Of a DNA stretch of 36,469 nt, positions 1-36,292 are shown in pieces. Numbering within the stretch: position 1 is the first letter of the stretch; each line of letters opens with the position of its first letter. Source of the stretch: an uncultured Bacilli bacterium (GTDB lineage Bacteria > Bacillota_I > Bacilli_A > RF39 > UBA660); contig CANQDB010000001.1 in assembly GCA_947591175.1 (NCBI GenBank), positions 1 to 36,469 on the forward strand, given 5' to 3'. Both the position numbers and the translations under genes were made by a program. Under the pieces are notes generated by a model. That model had not been told where the DNA came from and ran no database searches. It saw only the letters and a program-made list of their open reading frames with translations.

Positions 1-68
1 TAAAAGTTTCACTTTACGTGAAGTATATTTCCTTTTGTAATCTCCTCTAGTATATCTAGTATATATTC

Positions 69-100
69 ATTATAAGCCAAACATACCCCCCCCCAGTCAA
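69..100 (-). promoter_or_regulatory. Promoter P1 copy 1: TTGACT, 20-nt spacer with G9, TATAAT
   Basis: Minus strand reads TTGACT (95-100), GGGGGGGGG (86-94), TATGTTTGGCT, TATAAT (69-74). Confidence 0.5.
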
Positions 101-109
101 GCAAATCAG

Positions 110-137
110 CAAAAAACACCTGTCAAATTGACAAGTG
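110..137 (-). terminator. Intrinsic terminator after the 260-aa gene; part of the cassette
   Basis: Minus strand CACTTGTCAATTTGACAGGTG hairpin (117-137) followed by TTTTTT. Confidence 0.6.
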
Positions 138-3858: not shown

Positions 3859-5859
3859 TTATGGAACCAAAACCAGGTGGAACGAGTTGGTGACGTTCGC
3901 ATCCCCAATGTAGTAGCCGAAGTCGAATACACCCGTACTAGAATTGTGATAGATGCCGCCGCGGCAGAACCAAGGTTGCGACGATTTCACGAAATATTGA
4001 TTGTCATTATACCATCCGGCTGTTTCCGATAAAGCATGTCCATAACATATTCCTTCTTCACATGCTAAAGAAGCAGACTCATCTTCAGGATTCGAACTTG
4101 TGTATAAATCATAATATTTTTCATTTGGAAAGTCTATTCCAACATTCGAACAATCTCCTGAACGACATGTTCCATTAAAGCCCGAATTAGCTACTAGTAA
4201 AAATCCGCTTCTTGGTTGTCCATCGTCATCAGCGAGAACTCCCATGACATATTCATCTGCTCCTCCTGACATATCATACACTCCTGTGATATTTCCAGTA
4301 GTCGAGGCTCCAGGGCCTGCTAATCCTTTTCCATCTTTTAAATCTGTCATATCATCATATTCATATTGTCCTTCTTGTCTAGAGTCTTCTTGAGATGGTG
4401 TTCCATTACTATTTCCCGTTATATAAGTAGTTGATTTATTTTGATATACTTCTTTATTGGCACCATTATATAAAGAATTTCCATACTTTCCATATGTACT
4501 TTGTGAAAGATATGCTATTGCTCCCCACTCACTATTCTTACTCATATGAGTATCTTCTATTCCACTAAATCCATACTCTTCTTTAAATTCATTTGCCATT
4601 TTTTGCGATACTGTAAAGGCTTTAGCCACTTGAATATGTCCCCAGGATACAACATTTGGCTTTATTTGTGGTTTTATTGTATCTACATTACAAGTTTCTT
4701 TACCACTACAAGATGTTTCAGGACTCGTTTCAAATTTTCCATACCAGAATCCTTCTAATTCTTCTTCTCCAAAAGTAAATGCTGGATGTAATTTATAATT
4801 TCCTCCACTTTCTCCTGCTGTTCCACTTAAAAACTGCACCTTTATTTCTCCTGGAGTTTCTTGTGAACCTCCTGCATATTCAGCAATATTTACATAATCA
4901 TACTCATATCTTGGTATCCATACCCACATCGTATTGATATATTGTTCATCAATTACAGTATTTTCTGTAGCCCGAGTCAATGTTTCTCTTTGTTCTTCGA
5001 CTACTGTTACGGCATTAGCCCATTCTTGATTACAATAATTATACCAACTATTATCTTTGTTATCTTTGTCTGCTACTACCCAATTTCCATCTTTATAAAC
5101 AACTGGAATCATTCCTTGGGCTAATTGTGGTGCATTTGGTGTTGGTAATTCTTCACAAGTATTTTGTGATTCATTTTTTGGTTCAAGTGGTGGAGGTAAT
5201 TCTTCATTACTTGCATACACATTAACATTTACTGTGAACGTCTTTCCACCATATACCCATGAACCATTCTCATCAAATTCACTGGCACTTTCATCTATCC
5301 ACATACGATATCTATATGTCTTTTTAAAGTCTTCTTGATTTTCTTCTACCTTATCTTGTTCTAATGTCTTACCATTTCCTTCTTCTATTACAGATGGTTC
5401 TTGGCTTATCCATAGTTTGTTATAGATATTTACTTCTTGATTTGTCCATTTGTTTTGGATTGGTGTTTCACTATCTACTTCTCCTACACTTGTTAAATAT
5501 GTATCTACTACTTTTTCTTCTAGGGTAGAGCCATCTTTCTTCGTTAAATAGATTCCATAGTAAATTGGTGAACCTAGGGTCGTTGCCCTTACTTCGAACT
5601 CAAACATTCCTTGTCCACTTTGAGTTTTTCCATCGTCTGTTGTCATTGGAAAAGCATTTTGAATATTGATACTATTACTTGGCTTTTCGCTTAACTCATC
5701 ATAGACAAAGTATAATCTACCTGTTGTTAAAACGTTTTCTTGTTGTCCTTGTCTAGTATAAGTATAAAATGCATATGTTCCGCCTATCGTTAAGAGAACT
5801 AAACCTAGTACTAAAACTAGTATTAATACTTTCTTTTTTTGATTGTTTTTTTCGTCCAT
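3859..5859 (-). CDS. Family paralog A: SipW-type signal + TasA-like N-module + Cys-rich FGE/C-type-lectin-like C-module (666 aa)
   Basis: KKKVLILVLVLGLVLLTIGGTYAFYTY signal. The N-module is shared with 12528-13979. The C-module motifs WVWIPRYEY, HPAFTFGEEELEGFWYGKFETS, TGNITGVYDMSGGADEY and CRGG are shared with 32097-35042. Confidence 0.85.
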   Translation of the reverse strand: MDEKNNQKKKVLILVLVLGLVLLTIGGTYAFYTYTRQGQQENVLTTGRLYFVYDELSEKPSNSINIQNAFPMTTDDGKTQSGQGMFEFEVRATTLGSPIYYGIYLTKKDGSTLEEKVVDTYLTSVGEVDSETPIQNKWTNQEVNIYNKLWISQEPSVIEEGNGKTLEQDKVEENQEDFKKTYRYRMWIDESASEFDENGSWVYGGKTFTVNVNVYASNEELPPPLEPKNESQNTCEELPTPNAPQLAQGMIPVVYKDGNWVVADKDNKDNSWYNYCNQEWANAVTVVEEQRETLTRATENTVIDEQYINTMWVWIPRYEYDYVNIAEYAGGSQETPGEIKVQFLSGTAGESGGNYKLHPAFTFGEEELEGFWYGKFETSPETSCSGKETCNVDTIKPQIKPNVVSWGHIQVAKAFTVSQKMANEFKEEYGFSGIEDTHMSKNSEWGAIAYLSQSTYGKYGNSLYNGANKEVYQNKSTTYITGNSNGTPSQEDSRQEGQYEYDDMTDLKDGKGLAGPGASTTGNITGVYDMSGGADEYVMGVLADDDGQPRSGFLLVANSGFNGTCRSGDCSNVGIDFPNEKYYDLYTSSNPEDESASLACEEGICYGHALSETAGWYNDNQYFVKSSQPWFCRGGIYHNSSTGVFDFGYYIGDANVTNSFHLVLVP

Positions 5860-5889
5860 AATAAAATCAACTCCCTCTATGTTAATTAC

Positions 5890-5921
5890 ATTATAAGCCT
5901 ATCATACCCCCCCCCAGTCAA
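5890..5921 (-). promoter_or_regulatory. Promoter P1 copy 2: TTGACT, 20-nt spacer with G9, TATAAT
   Basis: Minus strand TTGACT (5916-5921), G9 (5907-5915), TATGATAGGCT, TATAAT (5890-5895). This is the only promoter-like element between the parC terminator and the ATG at 5859. Confidence 0.55.
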
Positions 5922-5931
5922 GCAAATTAAC

Positions 5932-5958
5932 AAAAAACACCTGTCAAATTGACAAGTG
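5932..5958 (-). terminator. Intrinsic terminator after parC; part of the cassette
   Basis: CACTTGTCAATTTGACAGGTG hairpin followed by TTTTTT on the minus strand, 6 nt after the parC stop. Confidence 0.6.
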
Positions 5959-12527: not shown

Positions 12528-13979
12528 TTAGGGTTTGACTTGAACTACAGTTTCCGGATTATTAAGATTCATATCACTTGCATTATCAATAAACCATTGC
12601 TTTGTAGAATCATCTTTAACATAGATTGAGGTTAATTGACGACAATAAGCGAACATACCTGACATATCAGTTACGTTTGAAGTGTCCCACCCACTTAAAT
12701 CTAGAGTGGTTAATTGGATACATCCTTGGAACATACCATTCGTTTCTGAATATTCAGAAATTGACAACGTAACTTTAATAGACATTAATTTCAAACTTGA
12801 TGTATCCCAATTACTTAAGTTTAGTGAATTTAAACTACTACATGAGGCAAACATACCACCAGCATTTTCAATTAAACTTGCATTATAATTTGTAAAATCA
12901 ATTGATTTTAAACTCATGAAATAAGCAAAAGAGGAACTAGAATCAGGATTTCCATAGGTCTCTCCATTTGAAGCTATTACTAAATCATTACATTGTGTAG
13001 GAGTACCTTCTTCAAAAAAAGAATTATTACAAGTTACTCCTTCATCATTAGGAATCATGTAAGCCATAACACTTCCATCCTGTTTCTCAGATATATCCCA
13101 TTGATTATCTTTAGAAACACTTTCTGGAATTTCTATTTCGTTTTCGAAACGAATATTGCTTATAGAAACTATTTTATCCATTGTGTGAAAGTCAGTATTT
13201 GAATACATTTGACTAAGATCACCACTCATTAAACTATCAAAATTATAAGTCCAACTTTGCATTACTCCTACTGGGGTTGGAGAAGGTAGTTCTTCATTTG
13301 AGGCATAGACATTTACTTTAACCGTAAAACTCTTTCCTCCATATATCCATTCTCCTTTACCATTAACACCCTCGGCACTTTCATCTAGCCACATACGATA
13401 TCTAAATACCTTAGAGTATTCTTCATTATTAGTACTTGGTATTGTTTCTTGATATAATGATTTACCTTGTTGTCCTTCTTCCAATACTGGTACATGACTA
13501 TTCCATAAGAATTGATATTGGGTTACTCCATTATCTTTTGTCCATTTATTGTCCCAACTTAGTTTAACTAAAGTTTCAGCACTATTTTCTCCTTTTTTAC
13601 CAGTAGTAGTTAAATACGTATCTACTACTTTCTCTGGTAAAGTAGAGCTTTCATCTTTAGTTAAATAAATCTCATAGTTGATATCTGCTCCTTGAGTTTT
13701 GGCTCTTACTTCGAACTCAAACATTCCAGGTTTTTCTTGAACCATTCCCTTTTCATCACTTACTGGAAAGGCATTACCAATTGTAATTTTATTACTGTCT
13801 TCCACGTCTGGTAACTCATCATAAACAAAATATAAAGATCCTGTTGTTAAAACATGTTCCTCTACTCCTTGTCTAGAATAAGTAAAGAAGGCATAAGTAG
13901 TTCCTACTGTTAAGAGAACTAATCCTAATACTAAAACTAGTATCAATACTTTCTTCTTTTGATTTTTCTTTTCTGGCAT
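12528..13979 (-). CDS. Family paralog B: SipW-type signal + TasA-like N-module + DUF285/BspA-type LRR head (483 aa)
   Basis: Start taken at MPEKKNQKKK (ATG 13979, RBS AAGGAG); the upstream extension to 14027 looks spurious. C-terminal repeats MFASCSSLNSLNLSNWDTS and MFQGCIQLTTLDLSGWDTSNVTDMSGMFAYC. Confidence 0.85.
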   Translation of the reverse strand: MPEKKNQKKKVLILVLVLGLVLLTVGTTYAFFTYSRQGVEEHVLTTGSLYFVYDELPDVEDSNKITIGNAFPVSDEKGMVQEKPGMFEFEVRAKTQGADINYEIYLTKDESSTLPEKVVDTYLTTTGKKGENSAETLVKLSWDNKWTKDNGVTQYQFLWNSHVPVLEEGQQGKSLYQETIPSTNNEEYSKVFRYRMWLDESAEGVNGKGEWIYGGKSFTVKVNVYASNEELPSPTPVGVMQSWTYNFDSLMSGDLSQMYSNTDFHTMDKIVSISNIRFENEIEIPESVSKDNQWDISEKQDGSVMAYMIPNDEGVTCNNSFFEEGTPTQCNDLVIASNGETYGNPDSSSSFAYFMSLKSIDFTNYNASLIENAGGMFASCSSLNSLNLSNWDTSSLKLMSIKVTLSISEYSETNGMFQGCIQLTTLDLSGWDTSNVTDMSGMFAYCRQLTSIYVKDDSTKQWFIDNASDMNLNNPETVVQVKP

Positions 13980-14052
13980 AAATAAAAACACACTCCTTAC
14001 TACTTTAGTTTTTACAAAAGAAACCATTCTATACGCTACCTAGTATATTTTT

Positions 14053-14081
14053 AATATACCCGTTTTACGTGTATAAGTCAA
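14053..14081 (-). promoter_or_regulatory. Promoter P2 copy 3: TTGACT, 17 nt, TATATT
   Basis: Minus strand TTGACT (14076-14081), 17-nt spacer, TATATT (14053-14058), about 70 nt upstream of the ATG at 13979. Confidence 0.5.
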
Positions 14082-14164
14082 TTACACTTCAAAAATTTGA
14101 AACCATAAAAGTTTCACTTTACGTGATGTATATTTCCTTTTGTAAGTCCCTCTAGTATATATTA

Positions 14165-14195
14165 ATTATAAGCCAAACATACCCCCCCCAGTCAA
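14165..14195 (-). promoter_or_regulatory. Promoter P1 copy 3: TTGACT, 19-nt spacer with G8, TATAAT
   Basis: TTGACT (14190-14195), G8 (14182-14189), TATGTTTGGCT, TATAAT (14165-14170). Confidence 0.5.
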
Positions 14196-14202
14196 GAAAA
14201 TT

Positions 14203-14232
14203 CAAAAAAAGACCTGTCAAGTTGACAAGTGC
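14203..14232 (-). terminator. Intrinsic terminator after the 274-aa gene; part of the cassette
   Basis: ACTTGTCAA-C-TTGACAGGT hairpin followed by TTTTTTT on the minus strand. Confidence 0.55.
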
Positions 14233-14249
14233 ATTTTCATTCTAATTTC

Positions 14250-15074
14250 TTATCTATTTGTAGATGGAACTCTTTTTAGTAAAGTAAATGGTGGATATGA
14301 CTCTTCCTTTGGAAATGGATAATATGGAATATCTCGTGGAACTTTATCTACTCCTTTACGTAGAGGAATATTTAAAGAATTCAAATTAATCATAACATCC
14401 ATCGCTTGATCAATTGTATAACCTTCGACTTCCATTAAGAACGATAACCCATTTTTACCATTGATAACATTCTTTTCAGTATCTATCCATAACAACTCAC
14501 AATCAGTCTTCTCTTTTACTTTAGGACTAGCCACCATAAAATAAGTAGCAAACTCGTTGTCGTAACGAACTTCCACTGAAGTATTTGGTGAGACATAAAA
14601 TGGAGCCAGTGCCAGTAAAGATGACTCTTGTAAGACCTTTCTTCTTTCTTCAAAAGAATACTTGTCATCTCTTAAACGAGTCGTAAGTAAATCCTCAACA
14701 AATGGTTCTAACTCTTTATTTCTTATTTCACCTAAATGAATATATGGTCTAAATGAGGAATCCTCTTTCTTTAACTCATCAATTACTAAATTATAATAAC
14801 GACAGGCTTCTATAAAAAGAGGTACTTGAACTATTTCATCACAAGTCTCTTCTAGACAAGTATACTCGGCAAGTAGAATTTCTCTTAAAGCATTGTTTTG
14901 ATAAGGTCCGTTAGTTAAAAGAGCCCTTCTTACATTTTCCTTTTCAGCTAGTGGTACTCTTCCTTCTAACTTCCTATACAAGTTTCTTGCTCGGTACTCG
15001 GTAAGTGTTCTTCCTTTCTTATAAAGTCTACTTCCATTTTGATGATAAAATTCTTGGATTTCTTTTCTTTCCAT
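14250..15074 (-). CDS. Hypothetical protein (274 aa)
   Basis: Long ORF. The ATG at 15074 has AAAGGAG 8 nt upstream. No family recognised. Confidence 0.6.
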   Translation of the reverse strand: MERKEIQEFYHQNGSRLYKKGRTLTEYRARNLYRKLEGRVPLAEKENVRRALLTNGPYQNNALREILLAEYTCLEETCDEIVQVPLFIEACRYYNLVIDELKKEDSSFRPYIHLGEIRNKELEPFVEDLLTTRLRDDKYSFEERRKVLQESSLLALAPFYVSPNTSVEVRYDNEFATYFMVASPKVKEKTDCELLWIDTEKNVINGKNGLSFLMEVEGYTIDQAMDVMINLNSLNIPLRKGVDKVPRDIPYYPFPKEESYPPFTLLKRVPSTNR

Positions 15075-15125
15075 TTTCTTCACTCCTTTTCCAAAAAAAA
15101 GGAAAAATAGCGGTAATTAGAACAA

Positions 15126-17948: not shown

Positions 17949-17973
17949 AGAAAAAAGAGGAACCAATCCTCTT
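17949..17973 (-). terminator. Intrinsic terminator after the 449-aa surface-protein gene
   Basis: AAGAGGA-TTGGT-TCCTCTT followed by TTTT on the minus strand; overlaps the stop codon. Confidence 0.55.
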
Positions 17974-19321
17974 ACTTGTTTTCATCATCGAATAAATCTT
18001 CGATATCATTTAAAATATCCGAGCGATCGACAACAGGTGCTTCGATTGTTTTTTCTAAAAGATCTTCTTCGCTCATATTTTGACTTGCTAAAGGTGAAGT
18101 TTCAACTGTTTCAGTAGGCACTTCCTCTTGAACTTTCTCTATTTCACTTGGAGTAGATTCAACAGAATCTTCTTCGTCCTTTTTCTTCTTAGCTTCTTTT
18201 TTCTCTTTCTTAAGTCTAATTTTTTCTGGATCTCTTGATTTTATAAAGAAGAAGATACCAAGACCCAACATTAATAAAGCAAGTATTGCAAAAACAACAA
18301 TCATTATGTATTTGCCGAAATCATTTTCATCCGAAGAATCGGCTAATACATCTCCAGTACTAGTAATTGATGAAGTATTTGAAGTAGTTTCTTTCCACTC
18401 GCCTTCTTTTAAACGTAACACATTGATAGTATAATCTTGGGTTGCACCAGTTGAATAAGTAACTCTAACTGTTACTGTGTTTTCCCCTACTACTAAATTC
18501 TTATTATTGAGTACTTCAACTGAAGCATAAGGTGAATTAGCCATAGCTCTTACTGTAATTTCCTCTACTTCGTAAGGAATCTTAACCGTATAGTAATAAA
18601 CATCGCTTTGGAAAGCTTCTTCTAAGGCATAACCATCAACTTTTAAGGAATCTAGTTTTACATCAGGATTTTCTCTTGTCACAACAATCGTATACTCTTT
18701 TACTTTATCGTTAGTATCTTTTAATTTAGTCGACACCGTAAAGACGTTACGTCCATCTTTTAAAGTTTTAGTACCGATAGAATCTAAGTTAACAATCGAT
18801 GAATTTTCGTCAGGTGTGGCATTGATTTTAATAACCTTTGTTTCTGGTGGAACAGTTACTGAATAAGTAGTCGTATCCTTATTAAATGCTGGACTTAGTT
18901 TATAGTCATCTAGGGATAATGAAGAAAGATAACTACTTTCTGGAACTGGTTTTTGAGGTTCATTGGAAACCCATACTGCTTTTAAAGTTATATCTTCTGT
19001 CACTTCTTCTAAGAAAGTATAAGTTTTACCATTAAGTTGCCATTCTTTAAAGGTAAAGCCATCTTTCGTAGGATCTTCACTTGGTTTCGCAACTGTTTTA
19101 CCTTTTTCTACTTTTTGAGAATTAACACTACTTCCTCCATCTGTATCAAAAGTAACAGTAAATGTTTCAGTTTCAGGTTCTTCTGGTGAAGCACTAGGGC
19201 TTGGACTTGGATCAGGGGATTCTGTTTCACTTGGACTAGTTGTTGGTTCAGCTAAAACATTATATGGTAAAGTTAATCCTAATATAAGTAAGAAAACTAA
19301 TAAACATTTTAATTTTTTCAT
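17972..19321 (-). CDS. Surface protein: signal peptide, Listeria-Bacteroides (InlB B-type) repeat, two cadherin-like beta-sandwich domains, C-terminal TM and acidic tail
   Basis: TVTFDTDGGSSV...GKTVAKPSEDPTKDGFTFKEWQLNGKTYTF. Two repeats of the form LSSLSL...L.PAF...TTYSVTV. TM helix IMIVVFAILALLMLGLGIFFFI. No LPXTG motif. Confidence 0.75.
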   Translation of the reverse strand: MKKLKCLLVFLLILGLTLPYNVLAEPTTSPSETESPDPSPSPSASPEEPETETFTVTFDTDGGSSVNSQKVEKGKTVAKPSEDPTKDGFTFKEWQLNGKTYTFLEEVTEDITLKAVWVSNEPQKPVPESSYLSSLSLDDYKLSPAFNKDTTTYSVTVPPETKVIKINATPDENSSIVNLDSIGTKTLKDGRNVFTVSTKLKDTNDKVKEYTIVVTRENPDVKLDSLKVDGYALEEAFQSDVYYYTVKIPYEVEEITVRAMANSPYASVEVLNNKNLVVGENTVTVRVTYSTGATQDYTINVLRLKEGEWKETTSNTSSITSTGDVLADSSDENDFGKYIMIVVFAILALLMLGLGIFFFIKSRDPEKIRLKKEKKEAKKKKDEEDSVESTPSEIEKVQEEVPTETVETSPLASQNMSEEDLLEKTIEAPVVDRSDILNDIEDLFDDENK

Positions 19322-19475: not shown

Positions 19476-19552
19476 GGACCCTTAGCTCAGTTGGTTAGAG
19501 CATTCGGCTCATAACCGAGCGGTCATAGGTTCGAGTCCTATAGGGTCCACCA
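19476..19552 (+). tRNA. tRNA with CAT anticodon, Met or lysidine-modified Ile2
   Basis: Cloverleaf GGACCCT/AGGGTCC acceptor, anticodon loop CTCATAA, TTCGAGT T-loop, encoded CCA. Not initiator-like. The body resembles Ile2(CAU) tRNAs. Confidence 0.9.
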
Positions 19553-19559
19553 CATATAT

Positions 19560-19643
19560 GCGGGTATGGCGGAACTGGCAGACGCACTAGACTTAGAATC
19601 TAGCGCCTATGGCGTGCAGGTTCAACTCCTGTTACCCGCACCA
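19560..19643 (+). tRNA. tRNA-Leu (TAG anticodon)
   Basis: GCGGGTA/TACCCGC acceptor, anticodon loop CTTAGAA, long variable arm, encoded CCA. Confidence 0.9.
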
Positions 19644-20306: not shown

Positions 20307-20396
20307 CTTGGTAAAAATTGGATAATATTTTTTTGAAATTTGTATTGACGAACATTCGTTTTATATTGTATGATGTTTTTGCAAAGGAGGTTTTGT

Positions 20397-21239
20397 ATGA
20401 ATCAAAACAAATTAGAAACTCTTTCAAATCTATTTGAAGGAAAAGAAATTAGAAGTATTTGGGATAGTGAAAAAGAAGATTACTATTTCAGTGTCGTGGA
20501 TGTTATTGCAGCTTTGACCGACAGTGTTGAGCCAAGAAAATACTGGTCTGTATTAAAGAATAGACTTAAAAAAGAAGGTAGTGAACTGACTACAAAATGT
20601 AGTCAGTTGAAAATGAAGGCACCAGATGGAAAGATAAGATTAAGAGATGCTTTAGACACTAAAGGAATACTAAGATTAATTGAATCCGTCCCTAGTCCTA
20701 AAGCAGAACCATTTAAATTATGGCTTGCTAATCTAGGAAGTGAAAGAATCGATGAAGTATTTGACCCTGAGATTGCTATCAAAAGAGCAATCAACTATTA
20801 TCGTAAAAGAGGCTACTCCGATAAATGGATTGAAGCAAGATTAAAAGGCATACTAGATAGAAATAAACTAACAGACGTTTGGAAAGATTGTGGCATCACT
20901 GAAAACTGTGAATTTGGAATTTTAACTAATGAAATATATAAAGAATGGTCTGGCATGAAGGCAAACGAATATAAAGAATTTAAAGGGCTTCACAAGGAAT
21001 CTTTAAGAGATAACATGTCAGATATTGAAATAGCACTTACCGATTTAGGTGAACTTGCAACTAGAGAACTTGCCAAAGAACATAAACCATTTGGCCTAGA
21101 ACAAAATAAAGAAATTGCCAAGATGGGTGGCAACGTTTCGAAAGTAGCAAGAGAAAACTTAGAAGAAAAACTTGGCAAATCTATAATCGACAACAAAAAC
21201 AAACTTAATTACCAATACCTAGAAGAAAAGAAAAAATAA
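20397..21239 (+). CDS. Bro-N domain protein (phage antirepressor / DinD-like family)
   Basis: FEGKEIRSIWDSEKEDYYFSVVDVIAALT is Bro-N-like. RBS AAGGAGG lies 6 nt before the ATG at 20397, and TTGACG/TATGAT promoter-like boxes lie at about 20344-20372. Confidence 0.75.
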   Translation: MNQNKLETLSNLFEGKEIRSIWDSEKEDYYFSVVDVIAALTDSVEPRKYWSVLKNRLKKEGSELTTKCSQLKMKAPDGKIRLRDALDTKGILRLIESVPSPKAEPFKLWLANLGSERIDEVFDPEIAIKRAINYYRKRGYSDKWIEARLKGILDRNKLTDVWKDCGITENCEFGILTNEIYKEWSGMKANEYKEFKGLHKESLRDNMSDIEIALTDLGELATRELAKEHKPFGLEQNKEIAKMGGNVSKVARENLEEKLGKSIIDNKNKLNYQYLEEKKK

Positions 21240-32096: not shown

Positions 32097-35042
32097 TTAT
32101 GATACTAATGCTATGCGAAAAGTATTTATATTTCGAGGGGCTCCACTTAATCTATGGGAATTGAAAAGTCCTGTATAATGAAAATCAGTTCTATCACCAT
32201 AGTAACCGCCTCTTTGTCGCCATGGTTCTGTTTTATATATTACCGCCTGTTGATTATTATTCCAAAAACTTACTTCAGATAAGGCATGTCCATAACATAT
32301 TCCGCCATTACACGCTTTATTAATGACGTCACTTGTATATAAATCATAGTATTTTTGTTCTGGACATGGAAGACCCAAATTATAATCTGTATTATCATTT
32401 AATTTACCGTTAAAACCCGAATTAGATGCGGTAGTATTTCCACTTCTTGGGTTCCCATTCTCATCGGCAAAAGCTCCCATTAAATATTCCCAAGATCCTC
32501 CGCTCATATCGTAAATACCATAGATATTTCCGGTTGTTGAGGCCTTTTTCCCAATTGGTGTTTCATATGTATTATTACAATTGGAACTTCCCGCAGCATT
32601 TACGGTATCACCAGCTATTCCTGTTTTAAATAAAGAACAATTATTTTTATATATTTCTTTTTCGGCTCCTTGATAATTAGGATTACCCTGCTTTCCAAAA
32701 TCACTTTGTGATAAATATACTACTGCTCCCCATTCGACATCTTTACTCATATGAATATCATAACTATTATTATTTGCAAAACCATAAAAAGCATAATTAT
32801 CAGTTTGCATTTTTCTAGAAGCATAAAAAGCATTGGAAACGTTTATAGACCTCCATGAAATAACACTTGGCTTTATAATTGGAGTCAACTCCGAAGTATT
32901 TGATTCTCCTTCGTTGGCAAATTTTTCTTCTCTATTACTTGTTTCGAATTTACCAAACCAAATACCTTCCAGTTCTTTATCACCGAATTTAAAGGCCGGA
33001 TGTACTTTATATGTTTTTTCGTCACTTGAAACATTTGTAACTCCAGCTAAAAAGTTTATTCCTATTGCTCCCGGTTGTTCTTGTGTTCCTCCTGCATATA
33101 AATTGCCTAAATTATCATATTTATATTCATATCTTGGAATCCAAGTCCACATTGTATTAATTACATCCATTGAAAGTGGTGTGTTATTTTTTATAGATTC
33201 ACCAACACTAAAATCTAAGTCTACAAGCAAATTAGTTTTATCGCTTAACTCTTTTCCTGCATATATATCTTTTACTTCTTGTTCAGTTAAGACTTGGTGA
33301 TATATTTGTGCTTTTGAATACGTGGCATTAGTATATTCTTGATGAGAAGGGGTAGCAAAATTAGGATTTGCCCCTAAATTAAATGGTGTACGTGATACTT
33401 TCATATTAAGAGGAGTAGACAAAGTATATAAATCAATTAAATTTCCATCTAAATATATTTTTATATCGCTTCCATCAAATACCATAGCAGCTTCATACCA
33501 CTTATTTGTTTCAAGTGTAAGGGAAGTAGTTTTTATAACATATTTTGTTCCATCATAAATACTATAAATAATATGTTCATCCGAGGTAATTGCTAAAAGG
33601 ATACCTGCACCATCGGCATTTCCTATAATATATCCGTTTCCAGATTTAGGAAAACTTTCTACTTTAAATCTAACTACTGTTGAAAAGGCTTGTCCAAAAT
33701 CATATTTTTCTAATCCTAAATCAATATAGTCATCTACTCCATCAGTTGTAGCACTACTTCCATTTGATTTAACATCAGGACTGTATTTGGCATGATTACC
33801 TTTTCCAGACATATCTCTTACCATTGTTTGATCAAGTGTTACAGCATTAGCCCACATTTGATTGTTATAATCAAACCACTTTCCATATTTGTTTGCTTTT
33901 CGCCATACAGCATTCTCTTCATCATAATATACTGGAATTAATCCATCTGTTAACTTAGGTCGATTGGCTCCTGTTGGATCTTCATAAACTTTTACATGGA
34001 TTGTTCTCGTATTACTTCCAATGTTTCCATCTTTATCTATAGCAAAATAATTTATAACATAATCTCCAAAACTTTCTATGTTATAACTTCCAATTGTTAT
34101 TACTGTTAGAGGTGTTCCTTGTTCATCTATAGCACTGGCCCCTTTATCTTCATAACTTTGACCGACATATAGATTTACTTCTCCTTCTCCATTTAAAGTA
34201 ACAACTGGAACAGTTTTGTTTACTTGTACTACATTTACTGTCCTTGCTGCTACTCCTTTGTTTCCTCTTGTATCTAATAATTCGTAGTAAATTATATAAA
34301 CTCCTTCTTGATTAGTATTTACTCCATCTACTACACTTGTACTTTCTCCGTTAAAATATTCGTATCTTTTAGTTACTTTGTTACTTGTTAAACTATCGAC
34401 ATTATCACTTACACTAGCTACTCCTGGATCACTAAACTCTTTTCCCTTTTCAACTGTCATTACTCTTTCGCCACTTAAAGTTATTGTTGGGGCTATATAA
34501 TCTTCAAAAGCATAGGCTTTAGATTCTTCGGCTACGACTTGAATTCTTCCTTTCCACGTCTTTCCCATTGCTTCGTTTCCTGTTTTCTCATCTAACCATA
34601 GCCTTAACTCATAAGTATCTTTTTGTAATCCATCTAGAGTTACGTTATCTTTTATAACAAGATCATTTAAATTACTGATTGTTCCTTCTTCTCCTTGTTT
34701 CTTTAACTCATATCTTAAACTACCTCTATTTAAAGTGTTACCTTCATCTTCTACTATACTTATTTGATATTTAGCCGAAATATTTCCTTTATTTTCGACA
34801 CTAAAAATAAAAGGCTCTAAGTTCTTTCCTTCGTCATCTTTCATGGGATAAGTATTCTTTAAAGAGATAGCTCCACTTTCCTCTTGAAAATTCACTTGAA
34901 AGATTCCTGTTGCCATACTATTTTGTTTTTTTCCTTCTTTCGAATAAACAAAAAAGGCATAACTTGTTCCAATTAATACAAGAAGAGAAAACATTATAGA
35001 AAGACACCATACAAATTTCTTTTTAGAACTTATTTCTTTCAT
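32097..35042 (-). CDS. Family paralog C: SipW-type signal + divergent TasA-like N-module + 2 Ig-like (DUF5011-type) + LamG + FGE/C-type-lectin-like module (981 aa)
   Basis: LLVLIGTSYAFFVYSKEG signal. Two PTITLSG/PVVTLNG Ig-like repeats. LamG-like block TTDGVDDYIDLG...WYEAAMVFDG..IKIYLDGNL. C-module motifs shared with paralog A. The ATG at 35042 lies 10 nt after AAGGAG. Confidence 0.85.
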   Translation of the reverse strand: MKEISSKKKFVWCLSIMFSLLVLIGTSYAFFVYSKEGKKQNSMATGIFQVNFQEESGAISLKNTYPMKDDEGKNLEPFIFSVENKGNISAKYQISIVEDEGNTLNRGSLRYELKKQGEEGTISNLNDLVIKDNVTLDGLQKDTYELRLWLDEKTGNEAMGKTWKGRIQVVAEESKAYAFEDYIAPTITLSGERVMTVEKGKEFSDPGVASVSDNVDSLTSNKVTKRYEYFNGESTSVVDGVNTNQEGVYIIYYELLDTRGNKGVAARTVNVVQVNKTVPVVTLNGEGEVNLYVGQSYEDKGASAIDEQGTPLTVITIGSYNIESFGDYVINYFAIDKDGNIGSNTRTIHVKVYEDPTGANRPKLTDGLIPVYYDEENAVWRKANKYGKWFDYNNQMWANAVTLDQTMVRDMSGKGNHAKYSPDVKSNGSSATTDGVDDYIDLGLEKYDFGQAFSTVVRFKVESFPKSGNGYIIGNADGAGILLAITSDEHIIYSIYDGTKYVIKTTSLTLETNKWYEAAMVFDGSDIKIYLDGNLIDLYTLSTPLNMKVSRTPFNLGANPNFATPSHQEYTNATYSKAQIYHQVLTEQEVKDIYAGKELSDKTNLLVDLDFSVGESIKNNTPLSMDVINTMWTWIPRYEYKYDNLGNLYAGGTQEQPGAIGINFLAGVTNVSSDEKTYKVHPAFKFGDKELEGIWFGKFETSNREEKFANEGESNTSELTPIIKPSVISWRSINVSNAFYASRKMQTDNYAFYGFANNNSYDIHMSKDVEWGAVVYLSQSDFGKQGNPNYQGAEKEIYKNNCSLFKTGIAGDTVNAAGSSNCNNTYETPIGKKASTTGNIYGIYDMSGGSWEYLMGAFADENGNPRSGNTTASNSGFNGKLNDNTDYNLGLPCPEQKYYDLYTSDVINKACNGGICYGHALSEVSFWNNNQQAVIYKTEPWRQRGGYYGDRTDFHYTGLFNSHRLSGAPRNINTFRIALVS

Positions 35043-35101
35043 AGTTATCAAACTCCTTACAACATTTAGTCTTTATCAAAAAGTCTTTATTATACAATTT
35101 A

Positions 35102-35130
35102 ATAATACTCACTTCTGGTGTATAAGTCAA
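35102..35130 (-). promoter_or_regulatory. Promoter P2 copy 4: TTGACT, 17 nt, TATTAT
   Basis: TTGACT 35125-35130, 17-nt spacer, TATTAT 35102-35107. The spacer sequence differs from copy 3 but its length is the same. Confidence 0.5.
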
Positions 35131-35212
35131 TTGCACTTCAAAATTTGAAACCCTTAAAGTTTCACTTTACGTGAAGTATATTTCCTTTTGCAACTCCCTC
35201 TAGTATATATTT

Positions 35213-35244
35213 ATTATAGCCCAAACATACCCCCCCCCAGTCAA
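35213..35244 (-). promoter_or_regulatory. Promoter P1 copy 4: TTGACT, 20-nt spacer with G9, TATAAT
   Basis: TTGACT 35239-35244, G9 35230-35238, TATGTTTGGGC, TATAAT 35213-35218. Confidence 0.5.
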
Positions 35245-36190: not shown

Positions 36191-36292
36191 ACTATACCTC
36201 CTTTAAAATATACTAGACTCGCTTTTTAAGGTGGAAACCATTGTTTCACTTAAACCTGTTCAATGCGGTTTGAGCACAAGAGGCTTCAAACA
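36191..36292 (-). ncRNA. Structured 5' leader of rplU, candidate L21-leader-type element
   Basis: Two hairpins on the minus strand: GUUUGA...UCAAAC, and an imperfect 12-bp hairpin UUUAAGUGAAAC-AAUG-GUUUCCACCUUAAA. They lie between the predicted promoter and the RBS. Confidence 0.4.

Follow-up and report, generated by a model that had tools for sequence, protein, structure and literature searches.

Predicted tandem promoters in the long form of a poly-G promoter cassette preceding a putative phase-variable surface-protein family in an uncultured Bacilli bacterium

It is textbook knowledge for mycoplasmas and a few mucosal pathogens that whole families of surface proteins undergo phase variation through promoter tracts, and promoter-spacer repeats act as switches in Neisseria meningitidis porA and opc and in the Haemophilus influenzae hif promoter. 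In Mycoplasma hyorhinis, every vlp gene has a poly(A) tract in its promoter (Citti & Wise 1995, summarised in PMC10502178), and TA repeats occupy the promoter spacer of M. mycoides Vmm (PMC10502178). Among families of the BspA-like/DUF285 type, Ca. Mycoplasma girerdii has at least 28 copies with phase variation by simple-sequence repeats (SSRs), which are mostly intragenic dinucleotide repeats acting by frameshift (PMC5476646), and the drp family of M. agalactiae is one for which phase variation was judged unlikely (PMC2824730). A hairpin in the 5' untranslated region (5' UTR) of H. influenzae hmw1A is essential to SSR-dependent phase variation and is processed by RNase III (PMC12721329). Here, we describe a 5' cassette with a poly-G promoter that occurs four times in 36,469 nucleotides (nt) of DNA from an uncultured Bacilli bacterium of the RF39/UBA660 lineage (assembly GCA_947591175.1, contig CANQDB010000001.1, positions 1 to 36,469); this whole stretch is called the window below, and cassette copies are numbered in order of position.

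The cassette exists in a short form and a long form. We rate it slightly more probable than otherwise that the long form represents a tandem-promoter variant of the 5' cassette that serves a phase-variable surface-protein family; in this variant, a poly-G promoter (P1) and a second promoter with a fixed spacer (P2) stand in succession ahead of one gene. Judged by analogy, the arrangement is homopolymer-tract promoter phase variation of the M. hyorhinis vlp type, a known strategy of immune and phage evasion and not a new kind of regulator. The anatomy of the cassette, the geometry of its promoters, its family context, the homology of P2 and a signature of concerted evolution are observed directly and are reported in turn, and from these we infer slippage switching, P2 activity and protein binding at a palindrome. 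Copy 3, a long form with a G8 tract at 13980-14232 of the minus strand, has the following parts and neighbors in order of transcription:

14250-15083, minus strand: upstream gene of 277 amino acids (aa), without a family match, ending ahead of the cassette terminator
14204-14230, minus strand: intrinsic terminator, with stem-loop ACTTGTCAACTTGACAGGT at 14212-14230 and then T7 at 14204-14210
14165-14195, minus strand: poly-G promoter P1, with -35 TTGACT at 14190-14195, G8 at 14182-14189, TATGTTTGGCT, and -10 TATAAT at 14165-14170
14147-14153, minus strand: block AGAGGGA, resembling a ribosome-binding site (RBS), within the conserved segment; in the long forms no start codon follows it
14082-14164, minus strand: conserved segment of 83 nt, leader of any P1 transcript and upstream region of P2
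14082-14130, minus strand: imperfect palindrome or hairpin of about 48 nt, adjoining the P2 -35
14114-14126, minus strand: dyad TCAC-N5-GTGA, inside the palindrome
14098-14116, minus strand: core dyad TGAAAC-N7-GTTTCA, inside the palindrome
14091-14098, minus strand: AT-rich tract AAATTTTT, between the core dyad and the P2 -35
14053-14081, minus strand: fixed-spacer promoter P2, with -35 TTGACT at 14076-14081, the 17-nt spacer TATACACGTAAAACGGG, and -10 TATATT at 14053-14058
13993-13998, minus strand: working RBS of the long form, AAGGAG, 13 nt ahead of the ATG at 13977-13979
12528-13979, minus strand: copy 3 gene, a 483-aa surface protein with the family N-terminal domain and PARCEL/DUF285 repeats

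Every element of copy 3 reported in a first-pass annotation of this DNA was found where it had been placed on the minus strand. This includes TTGACT, G8 and TATAAT of P1 at 14165-14195, for which the annotation had overlooked the length of the spacer (19 nt), as well as P2 in both complete long copies (TTGACT-17-TATATT at 14081-14053 in copy 3 and TTGACT-17-TATTAT at 35130-35102 in copy 4). As read from the DNA, both pairs of -35 and -10 hexamers have the same orientation upstream of one gene; P2 sits about 110 nt downstream of P1, and in copy 3 the leader from P2 to the gene is about 65 nt long and holds AAGGAG, followed by the ATG. The remaining cassettes and their genes are arranged as follows:

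1-137, minus strand: copy 1, long form, with the terminator at 117-137, G9 at 86-94 and the segment at 1-68, ended by the start of the contig
5860-5958, minus strand: copy 2, short form, behind parC, with the same terminator and P1 (G9 at 5907-5915, 20-nt spacer)
3859-5859, minus strand: copy 2 gene, with a domain of about 400 aa without a family match
35043-35244, minus strand: copy 4, long form, directly behind rpmA, with the P1 -35 at 35239-35244, G9 at 35230-35238 and -10 at 35213-35218
35131-35212 and 35102-35130, minus strand: segment and P2 (TTGACT-17-TATTAT) of copy 4
32097-35042, minus strand: copy 4 gene, with Ig-like and LamG domains

In copy 2, P1 is followed directly by TAGAGGGAGTTGATTTTATT-ATG, without the segment and without P2, and AGAGGGA is here the working RBS, 12 nt ahead of the ATG. 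The copy 1 gene is missing, since the contig begins inside the copy 1 segment; a break of the assembly at this point fits what is expected of a repeat with more copies than the window shows. Copy 1 also carries a 9-nt tandem duplication, ATATACTAG-ATATACTAG, at about 55-72. Another feature of the set is the terminator. A 21-nt hairpin, CACTTGTCAA-N-TTGACAGGTG, is identical at 117-137, 5938-5958 and 14211-14231 in copies 1-3, where it ends three unrelated genes (a Yip1/zinc-ribbon gene, parC and the 277-aa open reading frame), so the terminator travels with the cassette and is not part of the upstream gene. The proposal that each cassette brings its own terminator thus stands for copies 1-3, which have this one hairpin in common, and fails for copy 4, which has a different hairpin directly after rpmA. 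The related proposal of a portable unit is borne out by the block from the P1 -35 to the P2 -35, which is 90% identical ahead of genes that are 65% identical and behind unrelated upstream genes. That the cassette behaves as a unit independent of gene and flanks is therefore supported by the sequence comparison. Ahead of rplU-prp-rpmA, which precede copy 4, an Rfam L21_leader lies at 36206-36280 (36.2 bits against a gathering score of 36), an ordinary ribosomal leader.

The genes downstream of the cassettes belong to one family at their N-termini. Their proteins begin with a basic stretch, a hydrophobic segment that resembles a signal anchor, the motif GGTYAFFTY and a conserved domain of about 220 aa, and end in a variable C-terminus. 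The copy 3 gene (12528-13979) matches TIGR02167 at 86.7 bits (cut-off 30) and PF03382 at 50.9 bits (cut-off 25), which places it in the PARCEL/DUF285 class of BspA-like leucine-rich repeats (LRRs); the genes of copies 2 and 4 do not have this domain. With the signal-anchor-like segment and the PARCEL/DUF285, Ig-like or LamG domains, the genes form a surface-exposed variable multigene family. A database search returned 3653 relatives, of which the closest are 45-73% identical, come from NCBI only and lie on one contig each; these closest relatives (at least 12) look like further paralogues from the window's own assembly, in which the window makes up a complete contig and the others are on contigs of 3.4-35 kb. 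A separate gene at 17972-19321 encodes a 449-aa surface protein with Listeria-Bacteroides repeat and cadherin-like domains, without the family N-terminus and without a G-tract cassette. A BRO-N domain gene at 20370-21239 is on the plus strand, within a housekeeping region that is otherwise on the minus strand. It comes after two tRNA genes (19476-19549 and 19560-19640) and may mark a remnant of a prophage or island at a tRNA site.

The poly-G tract of P1 stands between the -35 and -10 hexamers, as does the tract in promoter-spacer phase variation of the vlp and porA type. TTGACT-G8/9-N11-TATAAT is present at four places in the window; for the motif TTGACTGGGGGG, four occurrences compare with 0.03 expected. 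The four cassette tracts are the sole G/C runs of at least 6 in these 36.5 kb of 34% G+C. The exact P1 pattern gave 0 matches in 185,579 species genomes, and the P1 pattern gave 0 in the JGI metagenomes, so these collections do not contain the genome. The spacer measures 19 nt in copy 3 (G8) and 20 nt in the three G9 copies, and P1 is thus one to two steps outside the 16-18 nt range in all four. Similarly, a consensus promoter scan allowing a spacer of 16-18 nt did not call P1 in the leader of copy 3 or copy 4 and called P2 in both, and inspection found no other -35/-10 pairing that gives P1 a 17-nt spacer at G8 or G9. Because of its spacer of 19-20 nt, P1 as sequenced is predicted to be weak or OFF. 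Slipped-strand changes in tract length would alter the P1 spacer, and the transcription of each paralogue would be switched or graded independently. Firing of P1 would need G6-G7, a contraction that restores a spacer of 17-18 nt. The short-form gene of copy 2 would be wholly dependent on its tract and hence purely switchable.

P2, on the other hand, has a fixed spacer, and a paralogue outside the window clarifies its nature. P2 is the sole canonically spaced promoter match at a conserved position in both long leaders (copies 3 and 4), and its -35 and 17-nt spacer recur in L012, a paralogue in the metagenome-assembled genome (MAG) Lapin-032__bin119. L012 is without a G-tract promoter, and its only promoter, TTGACT-TATACACGGAAAACGAG-TATCAT (L012:2395-2423), matches P2 of copy 3 at 25/27 positions. 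The homology extends through the 5' UTR to the RBS, with local alignment scores of 65 against copy 3 and 59 against copy 4 that none of 500 dinucleotide shuffles reached. The -35 is the same in copy 3, copy 4 and L012, the -10 of all three reads TAT..T, and the 17-nt spacer shows substitutions only, whereas the UTR just downstream is rich in insertions and deletions (indels); this is the pattern expected of a working promoter. For comparison, the window has 31 promoter matches of P2 quality in 73 kb of strand, or about one in every 2.4 kb. Based on these comparisons, P2 is very likely a real promoter, and the earlier argument for its function from the 17-nt spacer alone is strengthened by the stand-alone promoter of L012. 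In addition, the L012 promoter faces a divergently transcribed gene for a 79-aa regulator of the HTH_3/XRE type (gene and promoter together within L012:2120-2423; Pfam E=6e-9), whose product is a candidate regulator of P2-type promoters; a tblastn search found no homologue of this regulator in the window. P2 would thus be the older, gene-linked promoter, with a fixed 17-nt spacer and transcription independent of the G tract, and its transcripts would have a short leader of about 65 nt with its own RBS. The 83-nt segment would serve in the RNA as leader of the P1 transcript and, as DNA, as the upstream region of P2, with an AT-rich UP-like tract and a palindrome. Long-form genes would then be basally expressed or regulated and switchable in addition, either boosted when P1 is ON or governed by a regulator that acts at the palindrome.

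Relatives of the cassette were collected with a profile of the N-terminal domain (A2), which found 57 loci in species-representative genomes, mostly rabbit-gut MAGs labelled 'uncultured Bacilli bacterium'. About 22 paralogues are in Lapin-030__bin56, and other MAGs are Lapin-032__bin119 and BRZ_CH__bin90. Nearly all paralogues in these related MAGs have a poly-G tract in the promoter spacer. The 27 tabulated G-tract promoters comprise 26 paralogue loci and L001, which is the L008 rpmA locus captured a second time in another sample. Their tracts are G9 in 22/27 and G10 in 3/27 (L007, L017, L005), with G8 in L022 and G6 in L025, two loci whose cassettes are otherwise near-identical. No intact tract stands at the expected position in a few paralogues, e.g., L004, L012, L018 and L030, and more distant MAGs have G9-G12 at equivalent positions. 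The typical promoter of the relatives is TTGACN-T-G9-TAGTTT-TATAAT with a 16-nt spacer; that of L008 matches the consensus at 12/12 positions and that of L017 at 11/12 with a 17-nt spacer. By tract length, the relatives' spacers are thus 16 nt (G9), 17 nt (G10) and 14 nt (G6), against the 19-20 nt of the window. The short form is represented 18 times and the long form 9 times, but the relatives' long insert, of about 75 nt, is unlike the window segment in sequence and holds no canonically spaced second promoter. Homology of the window insert to the Lapin inserts could not be demonstrated, since in most pairs the alignment score lacked significance (equalled by 15 to 500 of 500 shuffles). The relatives' inserts fold at only -1.8 kcal/mol, with no compensatory pairs and no conserved structure, and anti-Shine-Dalgarno pairing in them was rejected at this same energy.

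Several of these loci show variants of the putative switch. In BRZ_CH__bin90, L004 (2440-2500) has an interrupted tract, GGAGGAGGG, with an 18-nt spacer and looks phase-locked, and its paralogue L005 (2440-2500) reads TTGCAA-N9-G10-TATAAT. In L040, from a more distant MAG, a G11 tract at 2477-2487 lies inside the 5' coding region (..AAAAACCATG11ACTTTATAC..), so that this family gene would, by its sequence, be switched by frameshift and not by promoter spacing. The second family gene of L011 (4722-4760) has a window-like P1, GCTTGACT-G9-TTAACTTTATTATAAT, with overlapping -10 boxes (TATTAT at 16 nt and TATAAT at 19 nt), and thus more than one tract length could give a usable spacer. About 70 nt upstream of each P1 in L002-L031 there is a conserved Lapin stretch, ..TTTTGTCCAAAAATGTCAAGTTTACA..TGTAAAAAATTAACAAAAAG-TTGAC, whose near-palindrome TGTCAAGTTTACA resembles the terminator stem TTGTCAA-N-TTGACA of window copies 1-3. 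Orthologous positions in two Lapin MAGs have an upstream gene in common but then the long form in L028 and the short form in L031, and the downstream N-termini differ; other such pairs are L026 and L006, and L024 and L027, and all tracts are G9. From these alignments, the cassette and the 5' end of the gene appear to be exchanged by recombination.

The identity of the segment among copies is as high as first noticed. Copies 3 and 4 agree at 75/83 positions (90%), and copy 3 is 93% identical over 55 nt to window 1-55 (copy 1); P1 agrees at 29/32 positions between copies 3 and 4. It was also correct that the copies diverge downstream of P2 (63/99 positions identical, or 64%, from the P2 spacer to the ATG of copies 3 and 4) and that non-coding identity exceeds coding identity, which over the first 150 coding nt is 65% for copy 3 versus 4 and 79% for copy 3 versus 2. 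The reading of this conservation as a functional signal, however, did not survive comparison with the relatives. The block of high identity between copies 3 and 4 has sharp edges, running from the P1 -35 to seven bases past the P2 -35, at TTGACTTATACAC, and its flanks are unrelated or only about 64% identical. The rpmA locus provides an orthologous comparison: as with copy 4, the gene directly behind rplU-prp-rpmA in L008 (and L001) is a long-form paralogue, and RpmA of the window and of L008 is 92% identical in protein and 84% in nucleotide sequence, yet the rpmA-linked leader of L008 is only about 50% identical to that of copy 4 and shares the P1 core only. As paralogous leaders (90%) are closer than orthologous ones (about 50%), the pattern indicates concerted evolution by gene conversion. 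The 90% identity of the segment would mainly be due to gene conversion, acting on the stretch between the P1 -35 and the P2 -35, and not to deep functional conservation. Neither the short form nor any of the related loci compared contains the segment, whose pattern gave 0 matches in the JGI metagenomes; by these comparisons, it is lineage-specific. A mobile-element, plasmid or phage origin of the module was rejected, as blastn found no match in plasmid and phage collections. The general lesson is that high non-coding identity of paralogous leaders may come from concerted evolution and is not evidence of a riboswitch.

Some constraint is nevertheless seen inside the segment. The short dyads noted earlier were confirmed and stay within the cassettes: TCACGTAAAGTGA has exactly three occurrences in the window, all of them in cassettes (6 matches against a shuffle mean of 1.2 when up to 2 mismatches are allowed), and TGAAAC-N7-GTTTCA occurs twice against a shuffle mean of 0.19; the gap of TTCAAA..TTTGAA is 2 nt in copy 3 and 1 nt in copy 4. 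Among the three copies, 4/6 variable columns fall inside the 11-nt block GAGGGAGTTGC (P=0.012, post hoc), which contains the vestigial RBS and, as the variable part of the segment, reads as a decaying RBS, and the 35 nt that follow (AAAAGGAAATATAC-N-TCACGTAAAGTGAAACTTT) have a single change. In the palindrome, the arms are invariant, and copies 3 and 4 differ at five positions, each of them among the 17 unpaired columns (P=0.004; the test is in part circular, as these two sequences also served to predict the structure). The palindrome at 14082-14130 could be an operator or activator site through which one transcription factor controls P2 across the family, with protein binding as the reason for the segment; this reading, which overlaps with the tandem-promoter cassette, would place a deterministic input atop the stochastic G-tract switch, and we regard it as unlikely, although deserving serious attention. 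It is favored by the 19-bp core dyad, whose arms are perfect in both complete copies while its spacer differs, by the position of the dyad centre about 61 nt upstream of the expected P2 start, and by the location of the copy differences outside the paired columns. The P2-type promoter of L012 adjoins a divergent HTH_3/XRE gene, and regulation of P2 would make sense because a constitutive P2 defeats phase variation. The layout of dyad and AAATTTTT tract is compatible with an activator or operator site together with an UP-like element. But the segment is found neither ahead of the L012 promoter nor at any related locus, no regulator gene was found in the window, short dyads are common in DNA of 34% G+C, gene conversion explains the identity, and only two copies are complete. 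The sequences thus hold a small signal of constraint in the palindrome, and the operator reading is worth testing. A more specific version, in which the palindrome is the site of a family-wide regulator (e.g., of the XRE type, as beside L012) that silences or activates P2 in all long forms and the P1 tract provides a stochastic escape, is less likely again. If it were true, it would amount to a two-layer switch, deterministic and bet-hedging, for the 12-25-gene surface repertoire of a gut commensal, with a control module spread and homogenised among loci by gene conversion.

The same palindrome might act as RNA, as a hairpin in the P1 5' UTR that controls stability, processing (e.g., by RNase III) or translation. 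As RNA it is predicted to form a 15-pair hairpin in both copies (-10.0 kcal/mol in copy 3 and -11.4 kcal/mol in copy 4; z -1.9 and -2.5), folding is 2-4 kcal/mol more favorable for the sense than for the antisense strand, via G-U pairs, the copy differences avoid the stems, and the essential 5'-UTR hairpin of hmw1A is a precedent (PMC12721329). However, the whole leader folds with z = -0.9, the copies show no compensatory pairs, the relatives' long forms lack a conserved structure, no anti-Shine-Dalgarno sequence is present, and transcription of the element would require P1 to be ON. Against Rfam, the window as a whole gave nothing relevant to the cassette at gathering score; with the limit relaxed to E up to 10, 13900-14300 gave only far-sub-threshold matches to unrelated families (12-20 bits). 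The structured 5' UTR from P1 considered in the first-pass annotation therefore found no support, also because the segment is missing from the short form and the relatives, and a riboswitch reading of the cassette is not supported. No U-tract follows the inner hairpin, which has 2 G-C pairs and then AAUUUUUG, so it is not a terminator; an attenuator or terminator between P1 and P2 was rejected, as the scan finds only the upstream terminator at 14212-14230. A leader peptide was likewise rejected, since the open frame of copy 3 is without a start codon and that of copy 4 is broken by a stop and a 1-nt indel. Overall, a role of the segment as RNA appears improbable. Scarcely more probable is a long form without added function, as a by-product of unequal recombination between promoter/RBS modules, with P1 or P2 redundant and a neutral segment homogenised by gene conversion. 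RBS-like GGAGTTG repeats flank the insert specific to the long form, ATATACTAG follows both -10 boxes with the extra 9-nt duplication in copy 1, the relatives' long forms differ in sequence, orthologous positions are short (L031) or long (L028) between species, and the concerted-evolution pattern applies equally to this case. Yet the P1 unit and the P2 unit, although colinear in alignment, are not significantly similar (score 27 versus 21.6 +/- 3.6; 101/1000 shuffles reach it), and P2 as a tandem duplicate of P1 was rejected on this ground. The P2 spacer, moreover, is free of indels in three diverged copies against an indel-rich UTR downstream, and the 35-nt segment core is nearly invariant while the adjoining vestigial RBS varies.

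The tandem-promoter cassette remains the best reading, and several points weigh against it. Only three long copies were compared, of which one (copy 1) is incomplete, and the sample is thus small. P1 of the window would need one to three contractions for activity; the three G9 copies are at least 2 slippage steps from 18 nt, which is unusual among working contingency loci, and P1 may be decaying in this lineage or have an unpredicted geometry. The orthologous loci in two related MAGs are all G9. In Campylobacter jejuni, poly-G tracts also cluster at G9 through mutational bias; with such a bias at work here, tracts with a mode of G9 could still be mutable. In three of the four genes, phase variation would be blunted if P2 were constitutive, which argues that P2 is regulated or weak. 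Finally, the invariance of the palindrome arms is not explained by plain hitchhiking and may need an explanation of its own.

In the literature searched, promoter-tract phase variation of surface-protein families is not described for uncultured spore-forming gut Bacilli. Here, and in a number of MAGs from rabbit, chicken and human guts, each genome has dozens of paralogues with a poly-G promoter tract. Combinatorial variation of the surface may therefore be a widespread means by which these commensals counter host immunity or phages. The long form poses the further question of how a fixed promoter behind a slippage-controlled one affects the switching of a contingency gene.

Comparison with the described systems places the cassette closest to vlp of M. 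hyorhinis. Both concern a variable surface multigene family in which each gene has a conserved 5' region with a promoter homopolymer, so that genes would switch independently and yield a combinatorial set. Unlike vlp, the tract here is poly-G instead of poly-A, and the genes are scattered behind housekeeping genes instead of clustered. The host is not a wall-less mycoplasma but a member of an uncultured, apparently spore-forming gut Bacilli lineage (SirA is encoded in the window, and YabP and YqfD in L001). In addition, three of the four copies here have a second promoter with a fixed spacer, and the switching is a prediction from sequence. With Vmm, porA, opc and hif, the cassette shares a repeat between -35 and -10 whose length sets the spacer and hence, here by prediction, promoter strength. 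Those are, however, single loci with tracts within one step of the optimum, whereas here a whole family shares the device, with spacers of 19-20 nt in the window and 16 nt in the relatives. The families of Ca. M. girerdii and drp resemble the present one in the PARCEL/DUF285 repeat class (one gene here), in many paralogues per genome and in gene-associated simple-sequence repeats, but the present family has its repeat as a homopolymer in the promoter, and what its members share is the N-terminal domain and not the LRR part. Like hmw1A/hmw2A, the long forms combine putatively phase-variable adhesin-type genes with a long leader that has a hairpin besides the repeat; the hmw repeat is itself transcribed and forms the hairpin, whereas here the G tract lies in the P1 spacer and the hairpin is separate and weak. 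Site-specific inversion, as in M. pulmonis vsa, M. bovis vsp and M. agalactiae vpma, was rejected for this locus, since the four cassettes are on the same strand, each with its own promoter, and are separated by the essential genes parC, parE, infB and rpmA, and since the window encodes no recombinase domain; those systems have clustered genes with a conserved 5'-UTR recombination site in inverted orientation, a recombinase next to them and one promoter. What is new relative to these systems is the unusual host group and the tandem fixed promoter, as a local elaboration of known promoter-tract phase variation.

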